Assembly: GCF_048268525.1 (NCBI RefSeq)
Contig: NZ_JBLWVH010000018.1
Span: 9,083 to 73,082, forward strand
Length of the DNA stretch: 64,000 bases
Reading direction: 5' to 3'
Source: Maricaulis sp.
GTDB taxonomy: Bacteria; Pseudomonadota; Alphaproteobacteria; Caulobacterales; Maricaulaceae
The notes beneath the pieces were generated by a model. That model was given only the letters and a program-made list of their open reading frames with translations. It did no database searches and had not been told where the DNA came from. Shown here piece after piece: positions 5,444 to 14,803 of this stretch. The position numbers and the translations under genes are program-made. Positions within the stretch are counted from its first letter, which is position 1. Each line of letters opens with the position of its first letter.

Positions 5444-7426
5444 ATGACCACGCCTTCAAACCCAGTTTCGATGTCCGACATGGCCAATGCCATCCGGGCG
5501 CTGTCGATGGACGCGGTCCAGCAAGCCAATTCAGGCCATCCCGGCATGCCGATGGGCATGGCCGACGTTGCCACCGTGTTGTGGTCGAAGCACATGAAAT
5601 TCGACCCGGCCGCGCCGGCCTGGGCGGATCGTGACCGCTTCATCCTGTCGGCCGGTCATGGCTCCATGCTGCTCTATTCGATCCTGCACCTTGCCGGGTT
5701 CGAGGACATCAGCATGGATGAGCTGAAAAACTTCCGCCAGCTCGACAGCCTGACCGCGGGCCACCCGGAATACGGTCACACGCCGGGTGTGGAAGCGACA
5801 ACCGGGCCGCTGGGGCAGGGTATCTCGATGTCGGTCGGAATGGCGTTGGCCGAGCGCATGATGAATGCGCGTTATGGGGATGATCTCGTCGATCACCGGA
5901 CCTGGGTCATCGCCTCGGATGGTGACCTGCAGGAAGGCATTTCCCACGAAGCGATATCGCTGGCCGGGCATCTCGGTCTGAACCGGTTGTGTGTCCTTTG
6001 GGACGACAATGAAATCTCCATCGACGGACCGACCGACCTGTCCGAGAGCACAGACGTGCTCGAGCGATTTGATGCTGCCGGTTGGGCGGTGTCGCGTATT
6101 GACGGGCATGACCCGGCTGCCATCGACGCCGCCCTGCAGGCGGCCCGCTCATCGGACAAGCCGGTCCTGATCGCCTGTCGGACCACGATCGGCTATGGCG
6201 CACCGACCAAAGCCGGGACGGCTGGCAGTCATGGCGCGCCGCTTGGCGCCGAAGAGATCGCCGGCACGCGTGCGGCGCTCGGCTGGACCGCTGCGCCATT
6301 CGAGATCCCGGCGGAGATTGTGGATGCATGGCGGGCGACCGGTTCGGCCGATGCCCACCAGGCTTGGCAGGAACGGTTGGCCGGGTCGGATCGGGCCGAC
6401 GACTTCGTGGCCCAGATTTCCGGTGAGCCGGGTGAGACCGAGATCGCAGCGCTCGACGCCTGGCGCCGTAAAGTCGCCGCCGACAAGCCGGTTCTGGCCA
6501 CGCGTGCAGCGTCAGGCCAGACCCTTGCCGCGATCATCGGCGACTGGCCCAGCCTGGCGGGTGGATCGGCGGACCTTGCCGGGTCCAACCTCACCAAGAC
6601 ACCCGATGTCGGTATCGTGAAAGCCGGCGACTATGCCGGCCAGTACATCCATTTCGGTGTGCGAGAGCATGGCATGGCCGCGTGTGCCAATGGCATGTCC
6701 CTGCACGGCGGTTTCCGGCCACATGTCGCGACCTTCCTGGTCTTCGCCGACTATTGCCGCCCGTCGATGCGCCTGTCATCCCTGATGCACCAGCCCGTAG
6801 TCTACGTCATGACCCATGATTCGATCGGGTTGGGTGAAGACGGACCGACCCACCAGCCGGTTGAAACCCTGGCGTCGCTTCGGGCCATCCCGAACATGCA
6901 TGTCTTCCGTCCGGCCGATGCACTGGAAACCGCCGAGGCCTGGGATCTGGCCCTTCGCCGGATTGACGGACCGTCCGTGCTCGCGCTGTCCCGTCAGAAA
7001 CTGCCATTCCTGCGTTCTGATGATGGCACGGAAAATCTGTCCTCCCGCGGCGCCTATATCCTGTCAGACGATGCCGGCACGCCGGACGTTGTCCTGGTCG
7101 GTACCGGCTCGGAAGTCTGCCTGGCAGTCGAGGCTGCCGGGATATTGCGGGGCAATGGACGCAAGGTCCGTGTGGTCTCCGCTCCCTGCCTCGACCTGTT
7201 GCTGGATCAGGGTGAAGCTTATCTCGATGAGATCTTCCCCGCCGATATACCGGTGGTCGCCTGTGAGGCGGCGCTGCGCTTTGGTTGGGACCAGGTGATT
7301 GGTCGCAAGGGCAGGTTCGTTGGCATGACCGGCTTCGGGGCGAGCGCCCCGGCCGACGACCTCTACGCACATTTCGGGATAACGGCGACGGCGATCGTCG
7401 AGCAGGCCGAGGCCAGCCTGGCCTGA
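5444..7426 (+). CDS. tkt: transketolase
   Basis: TPP-binding motifs (GHPGMPMGMAD, GDGDLQEGISHEA); 660 aa. Confidence 0.96.
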   Translation: MTTPSNPVSMSDMANAIRALSMDAVQQANSGHPGMPMGMADVATVLWSKHMKFDPAAPAWADRDRFILSAGHGSMLLYSILHLAGFEDISMDELKNFRQLDSLTAGHPEYGHTPGVEATTGPLGQGISMSVGMALAERMMNARYGDDLVDHRTWVIASDGDLQEGISHEAISLAGHLGLNRLCVLWDDNEISIDGPTDLSESTDVLERFDAAGWAVSRIDGHDPAAIDAALQAARSSDKPVLIACRTTIGYGAPTKAGTAGSHGAPLGAEEIAGTRAALGWTAAPFEIPAEIVDAWRATGSADAHQAWQERLAGSDRADDFVAQISGEPGETEIAALDAWRRKVAADKPVLATRAASGQTLAAIIGDWPSLAGGSADLAGSNLTKTPDVGIVKAGDYAGQYIHFGVREHGMAACANGMSLHGGFRPHVATFLVFADYCRPSMRLSSLMHQPVVYVMTHDSIGLGEDGPTHQPVETLASLRAIPNMHVFRPADALETAEAWDLALRRIDGPSVLALSRQKLPFLRSDDGTENLSSRGAYILSDDAGTPDVVLVGTGSEVCLAVEAAGILRGNGRKVRVVSAPCLDLLLDQGEAYLDEIFPADIPVVACEAALRFGWDQVIGRKGRFVGMTGFGASAPADDLYAHFGITATAIVEQAEASLA

Positions 7427-7448
7427 ACCGGCCTTGGCGGCGATGCGG

Positions 7449-8597
7449 TCAGTCGCTGACAGCGAGGCCTGTCGTGCGCGGCGATTGCAGGGCTGCCTGA
7501 ATCGCTGACTGCGGAAGCCGGGCGATATAGCTGCAGTCAGACGATCCGAACCAGAGGTCCTGATCCCCGGCGAGGACCATGTTCGACACATGGCAGATCC
7601 GCTGTTCCGGGTCATGGAAGGACGCAATGATCGCGCCGGACTGTTCGTCGAGCACGGCTATGAACGGATGTGGTGCGCCGCCATCCGGGCGAAGCCAGGC
7701 GGGCAGGCGGGCAGTGATCCGGGCCAACCACGGGTTTCTCCGGATCATGCGCAGGGTCGCGCTGCGCCCGGCGGGCATGGCAACAAACAAATGTCCTGAA
7801 CTGTCGATCGCCAAACCGTCAGGCAAGCCAGGCAGATTGCTGGCAAAGACCTCTGTTTCACCGCTCCGTGGGCCGTCGATCCAGTGGCGCAATATACGAT
7901 AACGGAAAGTTTCGGAAACATAGACCGACTGTCCGTCCGACGCGACCGTGACCCCGTTGGGGAAATAGAGCCTGTCTGCCGCGAGCCGGGTCTGGTGGGT
8001 ACGTGGGTCCCAGACATACAGCGCGCCGTGCGGACGGTTTTCGAACATGTCGAGCACATGCCCGCGATCAGGCCTGCCGTCGCCAAGGAGGACGGAGGGG
8101 TCCGTGAAGAATATTTCGCCCCGGCTGGTTATGGCGAGATCATTGGCATATCCGAATGGGTGGCCCGGTACGCCGACACTCACACGGGTCGATGCGCCGG
8201 TGGTTACATTGACTGCGAAAAGCCCATCCTGGGTGGTCGCGCCGAGCGTGTTGGAATTGATCCAGGCCAGGTCGAACACGGGCTGTTCACCGAAATCGAT
8301 GACCACCTCGGAAGACGGGGTCGCGCCAGCCGTATCTATCCGCACGACTTCGCCAACGGTGTTGCCGTAATAGACGGTGCCTGCCTCGCCCAGCGCGAGG
8401 GAACGCGCCGAACCCGGATCGCCCAATTCGAAAAACTGGGCTGACTGCAAGCCCGAATTGGGAGCGAGCACGCCGGTCATGGCGGGCGGATCCGGTTCAT
8501 CCCAGTAGACCGGGTTGATGGGGGAAGGCCACATCAGCCACAGGACAGCGAAGACCGCTGCAAGACTGATTGTGATCACTCCAATACGCAATCGCAT
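7449..8597 (-). CDS. SMP-30/gluconolactonase/strictosidine-synthase-like beta-propeller protein with an N-terminal membrane anchor
   Basis: N-terminal hydrophobic helix followed by SGL-like repeats (LAIDSSGHLFVA, FPNGVTVASDG). Confidence 0.7.
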   Translation of the reverse strand: MRLRIGVITISLAAVFAVLWLMWPSPINPVYWDEPDPPAMTGVLAPNSGLQSAQFFELGDPGSARSLALGEAGTVYYGNTVGEVVRIDTAGATPSSEVVIDFGEQPVFDLAWINSNTLGATTQDGLFAVNVTTGASTRVSVGVPGHPFGYANDLAITSRGEIFFTDPSVLLGDGRPDRGHVLDMFENRPHGALYVWDPRTHQTRLAADRLYFPNGVTVASDGQSVYVSETFRYRILRHWIDGPRSGETEVFASNLPGLPDGLAIDSSGHLFVAMPAGRSATLRMIRRNPWLARITARLPAWLRPDGGAPHPFIAVLDEQSGAIIASFHDPEQRICHVSNMVLAGDQDLWFGSSDCSYIARLPQSAIQAALQSPRTTGLAVSD

Positions 8598-8729
8598 GCC
8601 GGCCCGCCGGTGAAGCTGCGGCCTGGGACGTCAGGCCGCTTCAAAGGGGCGCATGTACGGTTTTAACCATCCTGCAGACAAGGCAGGCGCGGGTTGTGAA
8701 TTATAACCAGACGAGAATACCGGCCATGA

Positions 8730-9914
8730 TCAAACGGGTACGACCAGTCCGAACGCGTGGAGTTTGCCCAGCGTTTCAATCGCTGCAGCCTCATCCTGAC
8801 CGACAAAACTCGCGGCGGTCACCGTGCCGCCATCGAGGAGGGTGTGGAGCCCAGCCTCGGCCTCGGCGGCGAACCGGACCTCGCCGCCTGCGGTGATGAT
8901 GACGTTCTCTTTGTCATCGCCGGCAAAGCGCCATGGCACGAATGGTCGGAGCCGGAAGGCCTGCCCCGGCGTCGCCGGGGCCAGGTAGTTGCTGATCGCG
9001 CCACGGGTATTGGGCACGCGGGAGCGAATAAAGCTGTCGACAAAGAAGTCCATCGCCCCGTCGACGCTCATCTCGCGGGCCAGCATTTCAGCCATGGCCT
9101 TGAACTGTGCCTCGGCATCCGTCCGGTCGAAATCAGGCCGGGCAAAGCCGGGCGGAAGCGAGTGCCGCATGGCCGGTGTACGCAAGGCGACTTCTGAAAC
9201 GGCTTCGAGCATCAGGTCGGCCCAGGTCTTTACGATCAGGCCGAGCGTGATGTGGAGCGAGGCTGTGTCGCCATGGGTTCGCGCGTCGTGCATCAGGCCA
9301 CGCGGCACATAGATGCATTCGCCGGCTTTGAGGACAAACTCGGCAACGGTCTCGCCGGCTTCGTGGGCGTCTGGTCTGAAACCCTCTCCCCGGTAGGGGT
9401 TTTCGACCGGGGTTTCGTAGAAGCGCCACAGCTTCTCGCCTTCGATCTGCATGACGAACACATCGTGATCGTCATAGTGGGTATTGAACCCCTGATTGTC
9501 CGGCGGCGTGAGATAGATGTTGGTCTGAACGTGGCAGCTCAGCAGCGACTCGACCGCGCGGCAGAACTCGCCCAGTACGGCATCCATCATGTGGAGTTGC
9601 GGCAGGATGATGGTCGCGCCCTGTCGGTATTGGTTGGCGACGCCACCACGGTCCACATAGCCGGTATCGAACATATAGTCTTCGCGTTGCACCTGGGGCT
9701 CGGACCGCGCCATGTCCAGTGTGCCCTCACGCAGGTCTATGCTGGAGACAATGTCGTCGATGCGGGCGATCGACAGCAAGCCTGCATACCGGCCGGGGTC
9801 TTCCCGATGCACGATCAGCGGCTTTTTCTCATGGTAGTCACGGAAAAAGGTTTCGCGATCAATCGGATCGATCATCGCGCGAAACGGATCGGTCAGCCAG
9901 AGCGGTGCGGTCAT
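8730..9914 (-). CDS. JmjC/cupin-4 Fe(II)/2-oxoglutarate-dependent oxygenase, YcfD/RoxA-like (ribosomal-protein arginine hydroxylase family)
   Basis: HYDDHD (HxD) and a later H in GLMHDARTHG form a 2-His-1-carboxylate triad; FVMQIEGEKLWR resembles the YcfD FllQgsGrRrWr motif; C-terminal winged-helix-like region; 394 aa. Confidence 0.75.
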   Translation of the reverse strand: MTAPLWLTDPFRAMIDPIDRETFFRDYHEKKPLIVHREDPGRYAGLLSIARIDDIVSSIDLREGTLDMARSEPQVQREDYMFDTGYVDRGGVANQYRQGATIILPQLHMMDAVLGEFCRAVESLLSCHVQTNIYLTPPDNQGFNTHYDDHDVFVMQIEGEKLWRFYETPVENPYRGEGFRPDAHEAGETVAEFVLKAGECIYVPRGLMHDARTHGDTASLHITLGLIVKTWADLMLEAVSEVALRTPAMRHSLPPGFARPDFDRTDAEAQFKAMAEMLAREMSVDGAMDFFVDSFIRSRVPNTRGAISNYLAPATPGQAFRLRPFVPWRFAGDDKENVIITAGGEVRFAAEAEAGLHTLLDGGTVTAASFVGQDEAAAIETLGKLHAFGLVVPV

Positions 9915-10006
9915 AGTGAAGGTCTCCCCCGAGTGTTCGAAAAAATGTTAGCGGCGCCCGGTACGCTTGTCGCCTGCCTGGGTGTGCACAATTGTGTCGC
10001 AGGCAT

Positions 10007-10036
10007 GAAAAACCCCTCGCGCCGGAGCGGGAGGGG
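10007..10036 (-). terminator. rho-independent terminator downstream of repeat-protein gene 1
   Basis: GC-rich imperfect hairpin (cccctcgcgccggagcgggagggg) flanked by an A-run on the + strand, which is a T-run on the - strand. Confidence 0.6.
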
Positions 10037-10057
10037 TTGTTCATCGGCGCGTCGCTT

Positions 10058-10624
10058 CTAGCAGCGTCGGCCTCCGCCAACCAGATCAGCATAATTGCCG
10101 GTATCATTGTCCGTACACGAGCGGCCTCCGCCGCGACCACCGCCGACCGGGTCAGCATAGCGCCCCGAATCATTGTCGGTCGTGCCACGGTAATTGCCGC
10201 CACGACCGCGACCGGCCGGATCGGCGTAGCTGCCGCTGTCACTGTCGGTTATGCCGCTGCTGCCGCGCCCGCGTCCAGCCGGGTCGGCGTATGCGCCGGA
10301 GTCTGAATCGGTAACACCGCCACCGCGTCCGCCACCAACCGGGTCTGCATACTGGCCGGAATCGCTGTCCGTCACGCCGCCGCCCCGGCCATTGCCGATC
10401 GGGTCTGAATAGCGTCCGGTGTCGCTGTCGGTGATGCCGGTTGAACCGCGTCCGCCACGGCCGCCGCGTCCGCCACCGGCGGGATCAGCATAGCGTCCGG
10501 TGTCACTGTCTGTGTATCCGGTGGTCGCGCAACCGGCGACAGTGCCGGCCGCTCCGGTCGCAATGGCTGCGCCGGCGACCCGGGTCAGGAATGAACGCCG
10601 GGAGAGTTTTCCACGTTTGGCCAT
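10058..10624 (-). CDS. Tat-signal secreted Asp/Gly/Arg-rich repeat protein, paralog 1 (possible lipoprotein via VAGC)
   Basis: N-terminus MAKRGKLSRRSFLTRVAGAAIATGAAG is a twin-arginine signal; about 7 tandem copies of a ~20-aa unit T-D-S-D-[ST]-G-x-Y-A-D-P-x-G-x-G-R-G-G; C-terminal Cys pair; AAGGAGG RBS. Confidence 0.75.
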   Translation of the reverse strand: MAKRGKLSRRSFLTRVAGAAIATGAAGTVAGCATTGYTDSDTGRYADPAGGGRGGRGGRGSTGITDSDTGRYSDPIGNGRGGGVTDSDSGQYADPVGGGRGGGVTDSDSGAYADPAGRGRGSSGITDSDSGSYADPAGRGRGGNYRGTTDNDSGRYADPVGGGRGGGRSCTDNDTGNYADLVGGGRRC

Positions 10625-10647
10625 TGAAGCCTCCTTGTGCGGCGACG

Positions 10648-10672
10648 GGCCTGACCGGATGCGGTCAGGCCC
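10648..10672 (-). terminator. perfect 11-bp hairpin between repeat-protein genes 2 and 1 (attenuator/terminator-like, no T-run)
   Basis: gggcctgaccg-gat-cggtcaggccc. Confidence 0.4.
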
Positions 10673-10686
10673 GTACAGCGTGTCGC

Positions 10687-11247
10687 TTAGCGGCAGCGTC
10701 GACCACGGCCACCCGGATCCGCGTAGGTGCCGGAATCACTGTCCGAACAGGAGCGTCGGCCACGACCGTTTCCAGCGGGATCCGCATAGGCCCCGCTGTC
10801 GCTGTCTGTAACGCCGGAGCGTCCGCGTCCATTGCCCACTGGATCCGCATAGGCCCCGGTGTCGCTGTCGGTGACGCCGGAGGAGCGCCGCCCGCGGCCG
10901 TTGCCGGCGGGATCGGCATAGGAGCCGGAATCGCTGTCGGTAATGCCAGAGCGCCCGCGGCCATTGCCCGCCGGGTCTGCATAGGCCCCGGTGTCGCTGT
11001 CCGTGACTCCGGTGCTTCCGCGGCCATAGCCGGCGCGGTCGGCATTGGCGCCGCCATCACTGTCGGTGGCTCCGGTGCGTCCATAGCCCGCACGGTCAGC
11101 ATAGCTGCCCGTGTCGCTGTCGGTACGACCGGTGCGGTTCTGGGCGCTGGCTGCGCCCGATACGGCGCCCGCAGCGCCCGTCGCGATTGCGGTGCCAGCC
11201 ACTCTCGTCAGAAACGAGCGGCGACTGAGCTTTCCTTTTTTGGCCAT
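10687..11247 (-). CDS. Tat-signal secreted Asp/Gly/Arg-rich repeat protein, paralog 2
   Basis: MAKKGKLSRRSFLTRVAG twin-arginine signal; about 8 copies of the TDSD[ST]GxYADPAGNGRGR unit; C-terminal Cys pair. Confidence 0.75.
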   Translation of the reverse strand: MAKKGKLSRRSFLTRVAGTAIATGAAGAVSGAASAQNRTGRTDSDTGSYADRAGYGRTGATDSDGGANADRAGYGRGSTGVTDSDTGAYADPAGNGRGRSGITDSDSGSYADPAGNGRGRRSSGVTDSDTGAYADPVGNGRGRSGVTDSDSGAYADPAGNGRGRRSCSDSDSGTYADPGGRGRRCR

Positions 11248-11319
11248 GAAGATGCCTCTCTATCGTGTTCGGCAATCCCCCACGAACTGCTCGAAGTCCC
11301 TCACGATTGAACATGACAA

Positions 11320-11337
11320 CGGCGCCCTGAGGCGCCG
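11320..11337 (-). terminator. hairpin downstream of repeat-protein gene 3 (weak terminator)
   Basis: cggcgcc-ctga-ggcgccg followed by a weakly T-rich tract on the - strand. Confidence 0.35.
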
Positions 11338-11348
11338 CTGTTGATGTC

Positions 11349-11684
11349 TTACAGGCTCGGGCCGCGTCCGCGACCGCCCGGGTCGGAACAGCCGGAACTG
11401 TCAGAGTCGGTGTAACCGGTATTGCCGCGACCGTAGCCGGCCTGGTCAGCGCATGATCCGCTGTCGCTGTCGGTGCGCCCGGTGCTGCTCGTGCCGTGGT
11501 TGGCGTAATCATTCGGGTCCGAGTCGGTGATACCGGTCCGGGCGACCCCATCAACCGGGTCGGCATCCGAATAGCGTTGGACGACAGCGGCACCGGCAAC
11601 GGTGGCGATGGCGCCGGTGGCGATGGTTCCGCCTGCGACGCGCGTCAGGAATGAGCGACGGCTGAGTTTGCCTTTTTTGGCCAT
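11349..11684 (-). CDS. Tat-signal secreted Asp/Gly-rich repeat protein, paralog 3 (short, 111 aa)
   Basis: Internal ATG at 11684 gives MAKKGKLSRRSFLTRVAGG, matching the 5' ends of paralogs 1 and 2 at nucleotide level; the longer track frame (to 12095) is upstream read-through; about 3 degenerate repeat units plus C-terminal cysteines. Confidence 0.65.
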   Translation of the reverse strand: MAKKGKLSRRSFLTRVAGGTIATGAIATVAGAAVVQRYSDADPVDGVARTGITDSDPNDYANHGTSSTGRTDSDSGSCADQAGYGRGNTGYTDSDSSGCSDPGGRGRGPSL

Positions 11685-11954
11685 GTCTGTGTTTCCCCCT
11701 GGATCAGCAAAAGAACTGGCGGGATCGGATTTCCCGAACCCAATCAAACTGGTGCTGAGTCTAGGCGGGCCGGCATCGCTGAGCAATTGAAAGCTGTATA
11801 AAAAATATTGTTCAAAAACAATTGTATAGGAGTATTCATGATAATGATCCGCAATAAAAATGACTATGAGAATGGTTTGCACGATGTATAGATAGAGAAT
11901 GCGAGTTGTTCTCAGGCATGGAGGGGTGATCGCTGCAGCTTTGTCCGGGCTGTC

Positions 11955-11969
11955 GTTCTTGTCTTGTTC
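11955..11969 (+). promoter_or_regulatory. candidate alphaproteobacterial LexA (SOS) box GTTC-N7-GTTC upstream of ruvC
   Basis: gttcttgtcttgttc, about 45 nt upstream of the ruvC ATG. Confidence 0.5.
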
Positions 11970-12013
11970 CGCTCCCCGGACTGGTGTTAGCTTGACGGGT
12001 CCGGGAGGGGCTG

Positions 12014-12514
12014 ATGGCATTATCCGTGCGAATTCTGGGAATTGACCCTGGCTTGAGGCGAATGGGCTGGGGGATGATTCGAGTCGAGGGATCACGTCTC
12101 AGTGCGATTGCACATGGCGTGGTAACGCCACCGACCTCGGCGCCATTGTCCGAGCGGCTCATCCACATCTTCAATGCCGTCGGTGATCTCGTCGGTGAGC
12201 ATCGGCCGGATGAAGCCGCGATTGAAGAGGCATTCATGGCTGCCAATGCTGCTTCGGCTCTCAAGCTCGGCCATGCCCGGGCGGCAGCCCTGCTCGCCCC
12301 CGCAAAAGCCGGATTGCCTGTTGCCGAATATGCGGCGCGCCTGGTCAAAAAGTCGGTCGTGGGAACCGGTGCCGCGGACAAGTCCCAGATTGCGGCCATG
12401 ATCAGTATTTTGTTGCCCGGCACCAAGGCGACTGCCGACGCGGCTGACGCGCTGGCAATCGCGATCTGCCACGCCCATCACCGCCGCGCGGCAAGTTTCG
12501 GGAGTGCGGCATGA
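12014..12514 (+). CDS. ruvC: crossover junction endodeoxyribonuclease RuvC
   Basis: ILGIDPGLRRMGWG N-terminus; 166 aa. Confidence 0.95.
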   Translation: MALSVRILGIDPGLRRMGWGMIRVEGSRLSAIAHGVVTPPTSAPLSERLIHIFNAVGDLVGEHRPDEAAIEEAFMAANAASALKLGHARAAALLAPAKAGLPVAEYAARLVKKSVVGTGAADKSQIAAMISILLPGTKATADAADALAIAICHAHHRRAASFGSAA

Positions 12515-13152
12515 TCGGCATGTTGAAGGGCAAGGTTGAGGCGCTGGGCGCGGACGAGTTGGTGTTGGACGTCGCCGGCGTCGGCTATCTGGTCGGAGCC
12601 GGTGCCCGCACCCTGTCCCGCCTGGAGCCGGGCCAGGCTGTTGTCCTGCATATCGAAACCCATGTTCGGGAAGATGCTTTCAAGCTGTTCGGTTTTCTCG
12701 ACGATATTGACCGTGCCTGGTTCGTCCATCTGCAGAATATCCAGGGTGTCGGTGCCAAGGCTGCTTTCGCAATCCTCGATACAGTGCCGGTCAGTGAAAT
12801 TGCCAATGCAGCCGCTCTTGGCGACAAATCGACCTTTGCCCGGGCCAAGGGGGTCGGGCCGAAACTGGCAACCCGGATCGCGACTGAATTGAAGGACAAG
12901 GCACCGCCAACCGGTCGCAGTTTCTCGATCGGCCTGCCCGTACATGAAGATGACCTGGCGAATGGTTCGCAGCCGGCAAAGCCGACAGGAGGCGACAGTC
13001 TCGCCCGGGAGGATGCGGTCTCGGCGCTTGTCAATCTCGGCTACAATGAGAGCGCGGCGCGGCAGGCTGTGGCCAAAGTCCTTCGCGACGCGGGTTCGGA
13101 AGCCCCGTTGGGTGATGTGATCCGGCTGTCCCTGAAAGAACTCTCGGCATGA
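12511..13152 (+). CDS. ruvA: Holliday junction branch migration protein RuvA
   Basis: MIGMLKGKVE N-terminus; HhH motifs (IQGVGAKAAFAIL); 4-nt overlap with ruvC. Confidence 0.95.
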   Translation: MIGMLKGKVEALGADELVLDVAGVGYLVGAGARTLSRLEPGQAVVLHIETHVREDAFKLFGFLDDIDRAWFVHLQNIQGVGAKAAFAILDTVPVSEIANAAALGDKSTFARAKGVGPKLATRIATELKDKAPPTGRSFSIGLPVHEDDLANGSQPAKPTGGDSLAREDAVSALVNLGYNESAARQAVAKVLRDAGSEAPLGDVIRLSLKELSA

Positions 13153-14265: not shown

Positions 14266-14714
14266 GCGATTTGCTGACGCCTGCCGCGGGATCGATCGGG
14301 CCCGACCACATCCACAGGCTCCCGGTTCGGGTCTATTACGAGGACACCGACTTTTCAGGCGTCGTCTACCATGCCCGCTATCTCCACTTCTTTGAACGTG
14401 GCCGAACGGAGAGCCTTCGGGCCTGTGGTATCCATCATTCCGAGCTGGCCGCGATGACGCCTTCGCTGGCATTTGCCGTGCGTCGCATGTCGGTTGAATT
14501 CGTCCGTGCGGCCCGAGTCGATGATGTGCTGGTGGTCGGCACCGGCTTCAGACCGCAAGTCGGAGCGCGGTTGATGATGGAGCAAACCATCCATCGTGCT
14601 GACGAGCTGGTCGCGTCGGCTACGGTCGAAGCCGTCTGTATAGACAGCAGCGGCCGCGCAAAGCGACCGCCGGCGTGGATGCGAGATCGATGGCGCAGCT
14701 ATCTGCTCGACTGA
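14262..14714 (+). CDS. ybgC: tol-pal-associated acyl-CoA thioesterase YbgC (4HBT fold)
   Basis: [26 protein letters not shown] hotdog-thioesterase motif; position upstream of tolQ. Confidence 0.88.
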
Positions 14715-14803
14715 GAGCCACGCTCATTAACAATTACAACCCATCGGCCAGTATCACGGTGGCTATGTCTTGCCGGACGGACGCGCGGCAATTAACCCTG
14801 TAG

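Follow-up and report, generated by a model that had tools for sequence, protein, structure and literature searches.

Background

What connects a set of exported repeat proteins with an oxygenase of the JmjC type? The question is raised by a stretch of 64,000 nucleotides from Maricaulis sp. (NCBI RefSeq assembly GCF_048268525.1, contig NZ_JBLWVH010000018.1, positions 9,083 to 73,082; hereafter the window), in which three genes for small Asp/Gly-rich repeat proteins with twin-arginine translocation (Tat) leaders stand next to a gene for a JmjC oxygenase. The two kinds of gene recur side by side in many Alpha- and Gammaproteobacteria, and the repeats are rather likely to be a substrate of the adjacent enzyme. 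The repeat proteins and the oxygenase probably constitute an undescribed module, in that the repeat family matches no curated family model and literature searches found no paper describing such a pairing.

An earlier note, made from the letters of this DNA alone, had described three paralogous genes on the same strand followed by a terminator and the JmjC gene. All of these coordinates and features are present in the sequence:

11349-11684, minus strand: repeat gene C, 111 amino acids (aa), with its actual start at ATG 11684
10687-11247, minus strand: repeat gene B, 186 aa
10058-10624, minus strand: repeat gene A, 188 aa
10012-10028, minus strand: terminator-like hairpin with a T-run, inside the 143-nt gap between gene A and the oxygenase gene
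8730-9914, minus strand: JmjC_2 oxygenase gene, 394 aa (Pfam PF08007 at 1.5e-27)

A 248-aa open reading frame listed from GTG 12095 is an upstream extension of gene C that overlaps ruvC.

Results

Linkage of repeat genes and JmjC genes

A genome scan with the JmjC protein as query returned 69 ortholog loci, two of which are cut by contig ends, leaving 67 that are informative. A Tat-signal Asp/Gly repeat gene lies directly beside the JmjC gene in about 66 of these 67, with orthologs that are 40-98% identical; the enzyme of a Maricaulis metagenome-assembled genome (MAG) is 98% identical to that of the window. The repeat gene is mostly upstream on the same strand, with a gap of 4-367 bp between the JmjC gene and the tblastn match. 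It is downstream in L063, and L069 is the only informative locus without one. The earlier note had asked for a check of recurrent linkage in relatives, and the objection that there is none fails on these counts. In the Alteraurantiacibacter locus L074 (2546-2830) the Tat leader and two T-D-S-D units lie in different frames, an apparent frameshift that could be an assembly error or the mark of a pseudogene.

The linkage spans Maricaulaceae, Caulobacteraceae, Brevundimonas, other Alphaproteobacteria and several gammaproteobacterial lineages, and comprises at least ten flanking contexts and three gene orders. The Maricaulaceae by themselves prove little because the entire block of ruvCAB, repeat genes, JmjC gene, SGL gene (not in all loci) and tkt is syntenic in this clade. 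An account by synteny only was rejected because the pairing persists in unrelated flanks, where linked orthologs of 40-57% identity also occur. The pair lies between ruvA and ruvC in two Caulobacteraceae loci (L067 and L068) and is linked in Brevundimonas (L070 and L071), in L064 and L066, in gammaproteobacterial 'MT' bins (L053 and L056, with units reading T-D-S-D-A-N-D-R-x-G-N-G-R-G), in the gammaproteobacterial L075 (T-D-N-D-S-N-D-E-A-G-R-G-R-G), in Pseudomonadales (L058-L076, E-G-T-D-A-S-D-Q-S-G-G) and in an alphaproteobacterial clade with a crotonase gene downstream (L040, L046 and L072). This enoyl-CoA hydratase/crotonase-family gene comes right after the JmjC gene at L040 4549-5358, L046 11196-11999 and L072 8705-9628, and also in L108, L113 and L128.

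Enzymes only 36-40% identical to that of the window have the same neighbours, and two linked cases at 38-40% add to the 66 above. Repeat genes stand beside JmjC_2 in divergent orientation in a Rhodobacter MAG, and directly upstream on the same strand in a Sphingomonadaceae MAG and in an unrelated contig with 65% GC. A repeat-centred metagenome scan, made with a 10-sequence repeat alignment and biased towards close relatives of protein B, located a JmjC gene 9-274 bp downstream in 53 of 59 informative loci. Neither ruvC nor tkt is seen in 19 of these 53, several of the contigs being short.

No third gene is universally linked in the loci examined, as the SGL, crotonase, PepSY_TM and TonB receptor genes are each specific to some lineages. 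The JmjC orthologs are spread patchily among bacteria, unlike a housekeeping gene. The enzyme is nearly always accompanied by a repeat gene and the repeat genes are sometimes found alone, which fits an enzyme with partly dispersed substrates; the genome CP121327, for instance, holds both a linked trio (L044) and a stand-alone paralog (L003).

The repeat proteins

The repeats are neither chance nor low-complexity noise because at least 778 homologs were found at E<=1e-3, as well as 702 clusters at 50% identity, 407 of them at E<=1e-10. All homologs are labelled hypothetical, and the hosts belong to Maricaulis, Hyphobacterium, Rhodobacter, Pararhodobacter, Sphingomonadaceae and Brevundimonas. 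In Pfam and NCBIfam the three proteins had no matches other than sub-threshold ones to Tat signals, and protein B matched sequences of the PDB at chance level only (E>=0.03). The family, which the earlier note did not recognise, thus matches no curated family in these three databases.

Proteins A, B and C share the N-terminus M-A-K-[KR]-G-K-L-S-R-R-S-F-L-T-R-V-A-G. The twin-arginine motif L-S-R-R-S-F-L-T is followed in all three by a Gly/Ala/Thr-rich h-region, and both features are kept in relatives; export by Tat is predicted from this leader motif. In protein A the leader leads into a lipobox (V-A-G-C), seven units and a C-terminal C-x17-C, and the protein is predicted to be a Tat-exported lipoprotein. 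Protein B has a signal-peptidase-I-like site (A-S-A followed by Q), seven units of about 21 aa and the same C-terminal C-x17-C. Protein C, which starts with the leader MAKKGKLSRRSFLTRVAGG, has two to four degenerate units, no lipobox, and a Cys in place of the 'Y' residue in each of two successive units (C-x20-C), and is predicted to be soluble.

Tandem Repeats Finder reports a period of 63 nt (21 aa) with 4.5 copies and another of 132 nt. Extraction of the units gave 18 across the three proteins with a modal length of 21 aa, which confirms the tandem unit of about 20 residues proposed earlier. The unit profile is T-D-S-D-[ST]-G-x-Y-A-D-P-[AV]-G-x-G-R, in which D2 and D4 are conserved in all 18 units (100%), G13, G15 and R16 in 94% each, T1 and D10 in 89%, G6 in 83% and Y8 in 78%. 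Gly makes up 25% of the repeats, Asp 15%, Ser 12% and Arg 11%. The peptides GITDSDSGSYADPAGNGRGRSG and EGTDASDQSGGEGTDASDQSGG are candidate substrates. The proposed terminal Cys pair is present in all three proteins and, as C-x(14-22)-C at the C-terminus, in 105 of 141 related proteins. The earlier impression of a seemingly disordered protein agrees with an AlphaFold2 model of protein B built with 46 homologs, which has a pLDDT of 48.5 and the signal helix as its only secondary structure.

A lipobox-like motif is found in the JmjC-proximal paralog of 46 of 64 loci as compared to none of 77 distal genes, and gene C orthologs hold the same position in the cluster in the Maricaulaceae loci. Because the lipobox is confined to the proximal paralog the division between anchored and soluble proteins appears to be fixed, which suggests that the module typically yields one lipid-anchored and one or two soluble proteins. 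Three family members carry a C-terminal PG_binding_1 domain after the repeats (P0007, P0014 and P0034) and one a SnoaL-like domain (P0037), fusions that imply an intact protein acting in the envelope.

The oxygenase

The earlier note had assigned the oxygenase to the YcfD/RoxA type, an assignment that has to be corrected. The human enzymes NO66 and MINA53 are its nearest solved relatives in phmmer comparisons (3e-31 for NO66 to 1e-29), whereas YcfD of R. marinus reaches only 1.9e-5 and YcfD of E. coli was not found at E<0.01 with the oxygenase as query. The AlphaFold2 model of the enzyme (pLDDT 89.9) gives the same picture in Foldseek, with a full-length match to NO66 (TM-score 0.72-0.74, about 23% identity), a score of 0.72 for MINA53, and 0.55-0.59 at 14-17% identity for YcfD. 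The model has the three-domain architecture of the ribosomal oxygenases (ROX): a JmjC domain, a helical dimerisation domain and a C-terminal winged helix. The residues H146, D148 and H209 of the active site are invariant in the 69 orthologs, as are N132, Y134 and K161, and there is no signal peptide. The enzyme is, as modelled, a cytoplasmic Fe(II)/2-oxoglutarate (2OG) JmjC enzyme of the ribosomal-oxygenase fold that resembles NO66/MINA53 more than YcfD. A comparison of charge between the oxygenase and the repeats showed a weak trend only. In annotation pipelines the orthologs go under the names 'cupin domain-containing protein', 'ribosomal protein L16 Arg81 hydroxylase' or 'NO66', labels that derive from homology only.

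The candidate target residue

All JmjC-linked variants of the unit begin with [ST]-D and have D-x-[AS]-G further on as well as Gly, and their shared core can be written as [ST]-D...D-x-[AS]-G-x-G. The units of the Pseudomonadales type have no Arg, which occurs in one C-terminal GRNGRG per protein. Modification of Arg in every unit would therefore not be universal in the family. Asp is a likelier target than Arg on these comparisons, although as an assignment it is tentative and would be wrong more often than right.

Fur boxes and iron-related neighbours

The region upstream of gene C contains the following features:

11898-11916, strand not assigned: Fur-box-like palindrome AATGCGAGTTGTTCTCAGG, 17.3 bits with the Caulobacter Fur matrix
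11837-11855, strand not assigned: second, weaker Fur-box-like site CATGATAATGATCCGCAAT, 13.4 bits
11838-11866, minus strand: sigma-70-type promoter-like site TAGTCA-17-TATCAT, facing the repeat genes, a 9/12 match to the consensus only

The stronger site lies in the intergenic region that gene C has in common with the divergent ruvC, and the weaker site and the -10 hexamer of the promoter-like site overlap. This intergenic stretch has a G+C content of about 0.53 (window positions 11500-12250) as compared to about 0.62-0.69 around it. Only two other matches of at least 13 bits occur in the whole 64 kb, at 12955-12973 (15.9 bits, in ruvA) and at 14710-14728 (13.4 bits, just past ybgC), and both are probably due to chance. 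Oceanicaulis is a genus of the Maricaulaceae. The same type of box has been assigned to it by Rodionov et al. (PMC1698941), and the matrix used here was built from 27 published Fur sites of C. crescentus (PMC2724300). The E. coli Fur 19-mer, allowing up to 3 mismatches, has no match in the window, and the alphaproteobacterial matrix was needed.

In 48 of 64 loci the first repeat gene is preceded, at no more than 350 nt, by a site of at least 15 bits. The background in the same loci is 18 matches in 1.13 Mb, or 0.0056 per 350 nt, and none of their 217 other intergenic regions has such a site. In a comparison with shuffled sequences, 54 of the 65 upstream regions had p<=0.05. The sites in relatives come in arrays of two to three boxes and are found in Maricaulis, Hyphobacterium, Pseudomonadales, the gammaproteobacterial MT bins and L068, and a weaker site precedes a PepSY_TM-led operon in L064.

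A PepSY_TM gene of the PiuB/FoxB type is joined to the module in eight gammaproteobacterial loci. It is next to the JmjC gene in six (L058, L059, L061, L062, L065 and L076), starting exactly at its end in L058, L059, L062 and L065, and upstream of the pair together with a gene for a small unannotated membrane protein in L064 and L066. The MT bins (L053 and L056) have a divergent TonB-dependent receptor and an FG-GAP protein. The earlier note had considered a holdfast or matrix role; nothing was found in support of it, and the conserved Fur-box arrays and the TonB-receptor/PepSY_TM neighbours in Gammaproteobacteria point to iron instead. In L085/L086 (10001-11210) the stand-alone repeat gene P0099 is convergent with a gene for a CopB-family copper-resistance outer-membrane protein, a single instance that may hint at a broader role in metal handling.

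Flanking genes

The minus-strand order C, B, A, hairpin and oxygenase gene continues with one further gene:

7449-8597, minus strand: SGL/strictosidine-synthase-like beta-propeller protein, membrane-anchored, 382 aa, downstream of the oxygenase gene

The SGL gene adjoins the JmjC gene in the window and in most Maricaulis loci but is moved or missing in others, including Hyphobacterium and some Maricaulis, and we propose it with low confidence as a possible accessory of the module. A similar SGL/strictosidine-synthase-like gene lies 3' of the JmjC gene in one gammaproteobacterial locus (L066, 11232-12161). Beyond these lie housekeeping genes, tkt in one flank and ruvCAB, ybgC and tol-pal in the opposite one. 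An Rfam scan detected no RNA family in 7300-12300.

Discussion

A proposed module of enzyme and substrate

Modification in the cytoplasm followed by Tat export is a coherent reading because the oxygenase lacks a signal peptide and has an invariant Fe/2OG site. One to three genes would encode small twin-arginine proteins with an otherwise disordered Asp/Gly-rich body, transcribed from a promoter region carrying Fur boxes. In the window the hairpin would probably limit read-through into the oxygenase gene, and partial read-through might result in much more substrate than enzyme. The NO66/MINA53-like oxygenase would modify the repeat units post-translationally in the cytoplasm, most likely by beta-hydroxylation of the conserved Asp and less likely by hydroxylation of Arg, after which the proteins would be exported through Tat, a sensible route if they must remain in the cytoplasm until modified. 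We infer the dependence on Tat from the leader. The paralog adjacent to the oxygenase gene would be lipid-anchored and the others soluble, and the last unit might be closed by the terminal Cys pair. Once in the envelope, the proteins would act as multivalent metal binders, most likely of Fe(III), since the alpha-hydroxycarboxylate beta-hydroxy-Asp is a ligand of iron, and the function might be acquisition or buffering of iron under iron limitation.

Taken as a whole, the reading as a Fur-controlled module of enzyme and substrate, in which the repeat proteins are modified by the oxygenase, exported by Tat and bind metal, has in our view an even chance of being right. An iron-related role, judged by itself, is equally easy to believe and to doubt. 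The interpretation in the earlier note survives in the recurrent, conserved pair and the intact Fe/2OG site, and not in the YcfD type, the calcium-binding repeats or the holdfast or matrix role.

Several observations weigh against the proposed module. Modification of the repeats is a prediction, and the choice of target residue a guess. The ribosomal oxygenases known so far act on His or Arg and not on Asp, and the single C-terminal GRNGRG in each Pseudomonadales protein leaves room for a single Arg site. The linkage counts overstate the number of independent events as many loci are close relatives, and for six of ten family members looked up singly (protein B counted) there is no JmjC gene within 8-10 kb on each side. 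The TIGR01409 Tat model, a short one, matches the three repeat proteins near its threshold, at 10.9-14.1 bits, which is under the cut-off of 16.7. The matrix scan found no Fur boxes in the linked loci L040, L046, L072, L070, L071, L077 and L080 or at the unlinked paralogs. Where boxes are present they may belong to the neighbours, as those of Maricaulaceae are shared with ruvC and those of Gammaproteobacteria with genes of iron-uptake type. It is also somewhat paradoxical that an Fe(II)-dependent enzyme should be induced by iron starvation.

A more specific form of the iron hypothesis is a gene-encoded 'protein siderophore', in which strings of beta-hydroxy-Asp, two to three Asp per unit, would constitute Fe(III) sites on a Tat-exported disordered polypeptide that captures or relays iron, in some Gammaproteobacteria in cooperation with the TonB-dependent receptor and the PepSY_TM reductase. 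We regard this form as possible and rather doubtful. If true, it would be the first ribosomal-oxygenase-type JmjC enzyme of bacteria with a non-ribosomal, exported substrate.

Comparison with known systems

Beta-hydroxy-Asp is a classic Fe(III) ligand in marine siderophores. The module resembles the beta-hydroxyaspartate siderophores and the Fur-regulated sets of TonB receptor, PiuB and PiuC in its predicted Fur control, and the gammaproteobacterial loci likewise combine a TonB-dependent receptor or a PepSY_TM protein (PiuB-type) with a 2OG oxygenase. The siderophores are, however, products of non-ribosomal synthetases and TauD-type hydroxylases, PiuC belongs to the prolyl-hydroxylase type and not to JmjC, and the candidate carrier of the ligand here is a gene-encoded protein.

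The ribosomal oxygenases, among them NO66, MINA53 and YcfD/RoxA, act as a group on L16 Arg81, Rpl8 His216 or Rpl27a His39. They share with the window enzyme the JmjC double-stranded beta-helix, the HxD...H triad, the 2OG-binding Lys and the same three-domain fold over the whole length, and they are protein hydroxylases that target a residue in a Gly-containing loop. The window enzyme differs in being only 22-24% identical to NO66/MINA53 and 14-17% to YcfD, in having its gene tied to genes for exported repeat proteins and not to a ribosomal function, in the Fur boxes of its cluster, and in its likely target, which would be Asp in tandem units as opposed to one ribosomal His or Arg. The gene context argues for a substrate other than a ribosomal protein. 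FIH and AspH, Asn/Asp beta-hydroxylases of ankyrin and EGF repeats whose product in EGF aids calcium binding, are precedents for 2OG oxygenases that hydroxylate Asp in repeats and, as proposed here, in many copies of a repeated motif. On the other hand, FIH is a weak Foldseek match to the window enzyme (TM-score about 0.36), AspH is absent from the phmmer and Foldseek matches shown for it, and the candidate substrates here are disordered exported proteins of bacteria.

The closest functional analogy, and an analogy only, is offered by the bufferins (Leprevost et al. 2024), metallophores with a signal peptide that belong to the peptides made on the ribosome and altered after translation (RiPPs) and are modified by MNIO enzymes. 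In both cases the gene of an iron enzyme lies next to that of a ribosomal product, which the enzyme would modify in the cytoplasm and which would carry a general secretion signal and handle metal in the envelope. The bufferins differ in their enzyme (MNIO/DUF692 and not JmjC), in the modification (heterocycles derived from Cys and not the hydroxylation proposed here), in the signal (Sec and not twin-arginine) and in the metal (copper and not, as is probable here, iron), and they are without the tandem-repeat architecture seen here. No MNIO (DUF692) or DUF2282/BUF domain was detected by Pfam in the repeat proteins, JmjC and SGL proteins of the window and nine neighbour proteins of related loci, or in the precomputed gene labels.

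Alternative explanations

An alternative that stays close to the earlier note is that the JmjC enzyme hydroxylates the Arg of G-R-G, as YcfD does on L16, and that the exported products are calcium-binding proteins of envelope, holdfast or matrix. YcfD-type enzymes are established hydroxylases of Arg beside a Gly-rich loop, the window enzyme shares the ribosomal-oxygenase fold, and in alphaproteobacterial units the conservation of G-x-G-R-G is high (R16 in 84-94%). The analogy with L16 is nevertheless weak because Pseudomonadales units without Arg stand beside an orthologous JmjC gene (about 50% identity), and because the enzyme is much nearer to the His hydroxylases NO66 and MINA53 than to YcfD. 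As for calcium, the D-x-D-x-G loops and the terminal unit closed by Cys resemble calcium-binding repeats, a resemblance only. The loops had been compared with thrombospondin type 3 (TSP3) and EF-hand repeats, but no TSP3, EF-hand or RTX model in Pfam matches the repeat proteins at E<=1, and the units, which read T-D-S-D-[ST]-G, do not have the DxDxDG calcium motif as the third Asp before Gly is missing. The family is also found in non-stalked Rhodobacter, Sphingomonadaceae and Pseudomonadales, and Fur boxes indicate iron and not calcium. This explanation is therefore unlikely.

Somewhat less probable still is that the repeat proteins are RiPP-like multi-core precursors, which after export would be cut at the basic G-R-G-R(R/S) linkers into hydroxylated peptides of about 20 residues, for example peptide metallophores. 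The tandem, nearly identical units with basic linkers and the modifying enzyme next to a precursor with repeated cores are what such a system would look like, and JmjC hydroxylases are found in RiPP clusters (PMC12257519). What comes closest in the literature is a report of RRE-like C-terminal folds in some PF08007 enzymes, with bacterial homologs that lie in RiPP-like contexts (PMC12710340). On the other hand, no leader/core protease or peptide exporter is conserved in any context examined, the proximal paralog is a predicted lipoprotein, most of the related proteins have the disulfide-capable terminal Cys pair, and the PG_binding_1 and SnoaL fusions speak for an intact exported protein.

That there is no enzyme-substrate relation at all, with the JmjC enzyme acting on a ribosomal or other cytoplasmic protein and unmodified repeat proteins merely sharing an operon or regulon with it, is just as improbable: the labels 'ribosomal protein L16 Arg81 hydroxylase' and 'NO66', the terminator-like element between the genes, the many repeat-family genes that stand alone and the syntenic block in Maricaulaceae would all agree with it, but the labels are homology-derived, the bacterial distribution is patchy and not housekeeping-like, the pairing is nearly universal down to about 36% identity through all contexts and gene orders with no other neighbour conserved, and an enzyme that is rarely alone beside repeat genes that sometimes are is expected for dispersed substrates.

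Conclusions

If the proposed module is real, it would give a function to an uncharacterised exported family of about 700 clusters at 50% identity for which neither Pfam nor NCBIfam has a model. More than 1000 JmjC proteins of one clade, now labelled, by homology only, as L16 or NO66 hydroxylases, would be reassigned, and the ribosomal-oxygenase-type enzymes would be extended to exported substrates. Together with the bufferins it would be the second case of enzyme-modified ribosomal products that carry a general secretion signal, here twin-arginine, and handle metals. Should the product contain beta-hydroxy-Asp, a ligand hitherto met in marine siderophores of non-ribosomal origin would also be accessible by a ribosomal route, which would bear on the acquisition of iron by marine Alpha- and Gammaproteobacteria.

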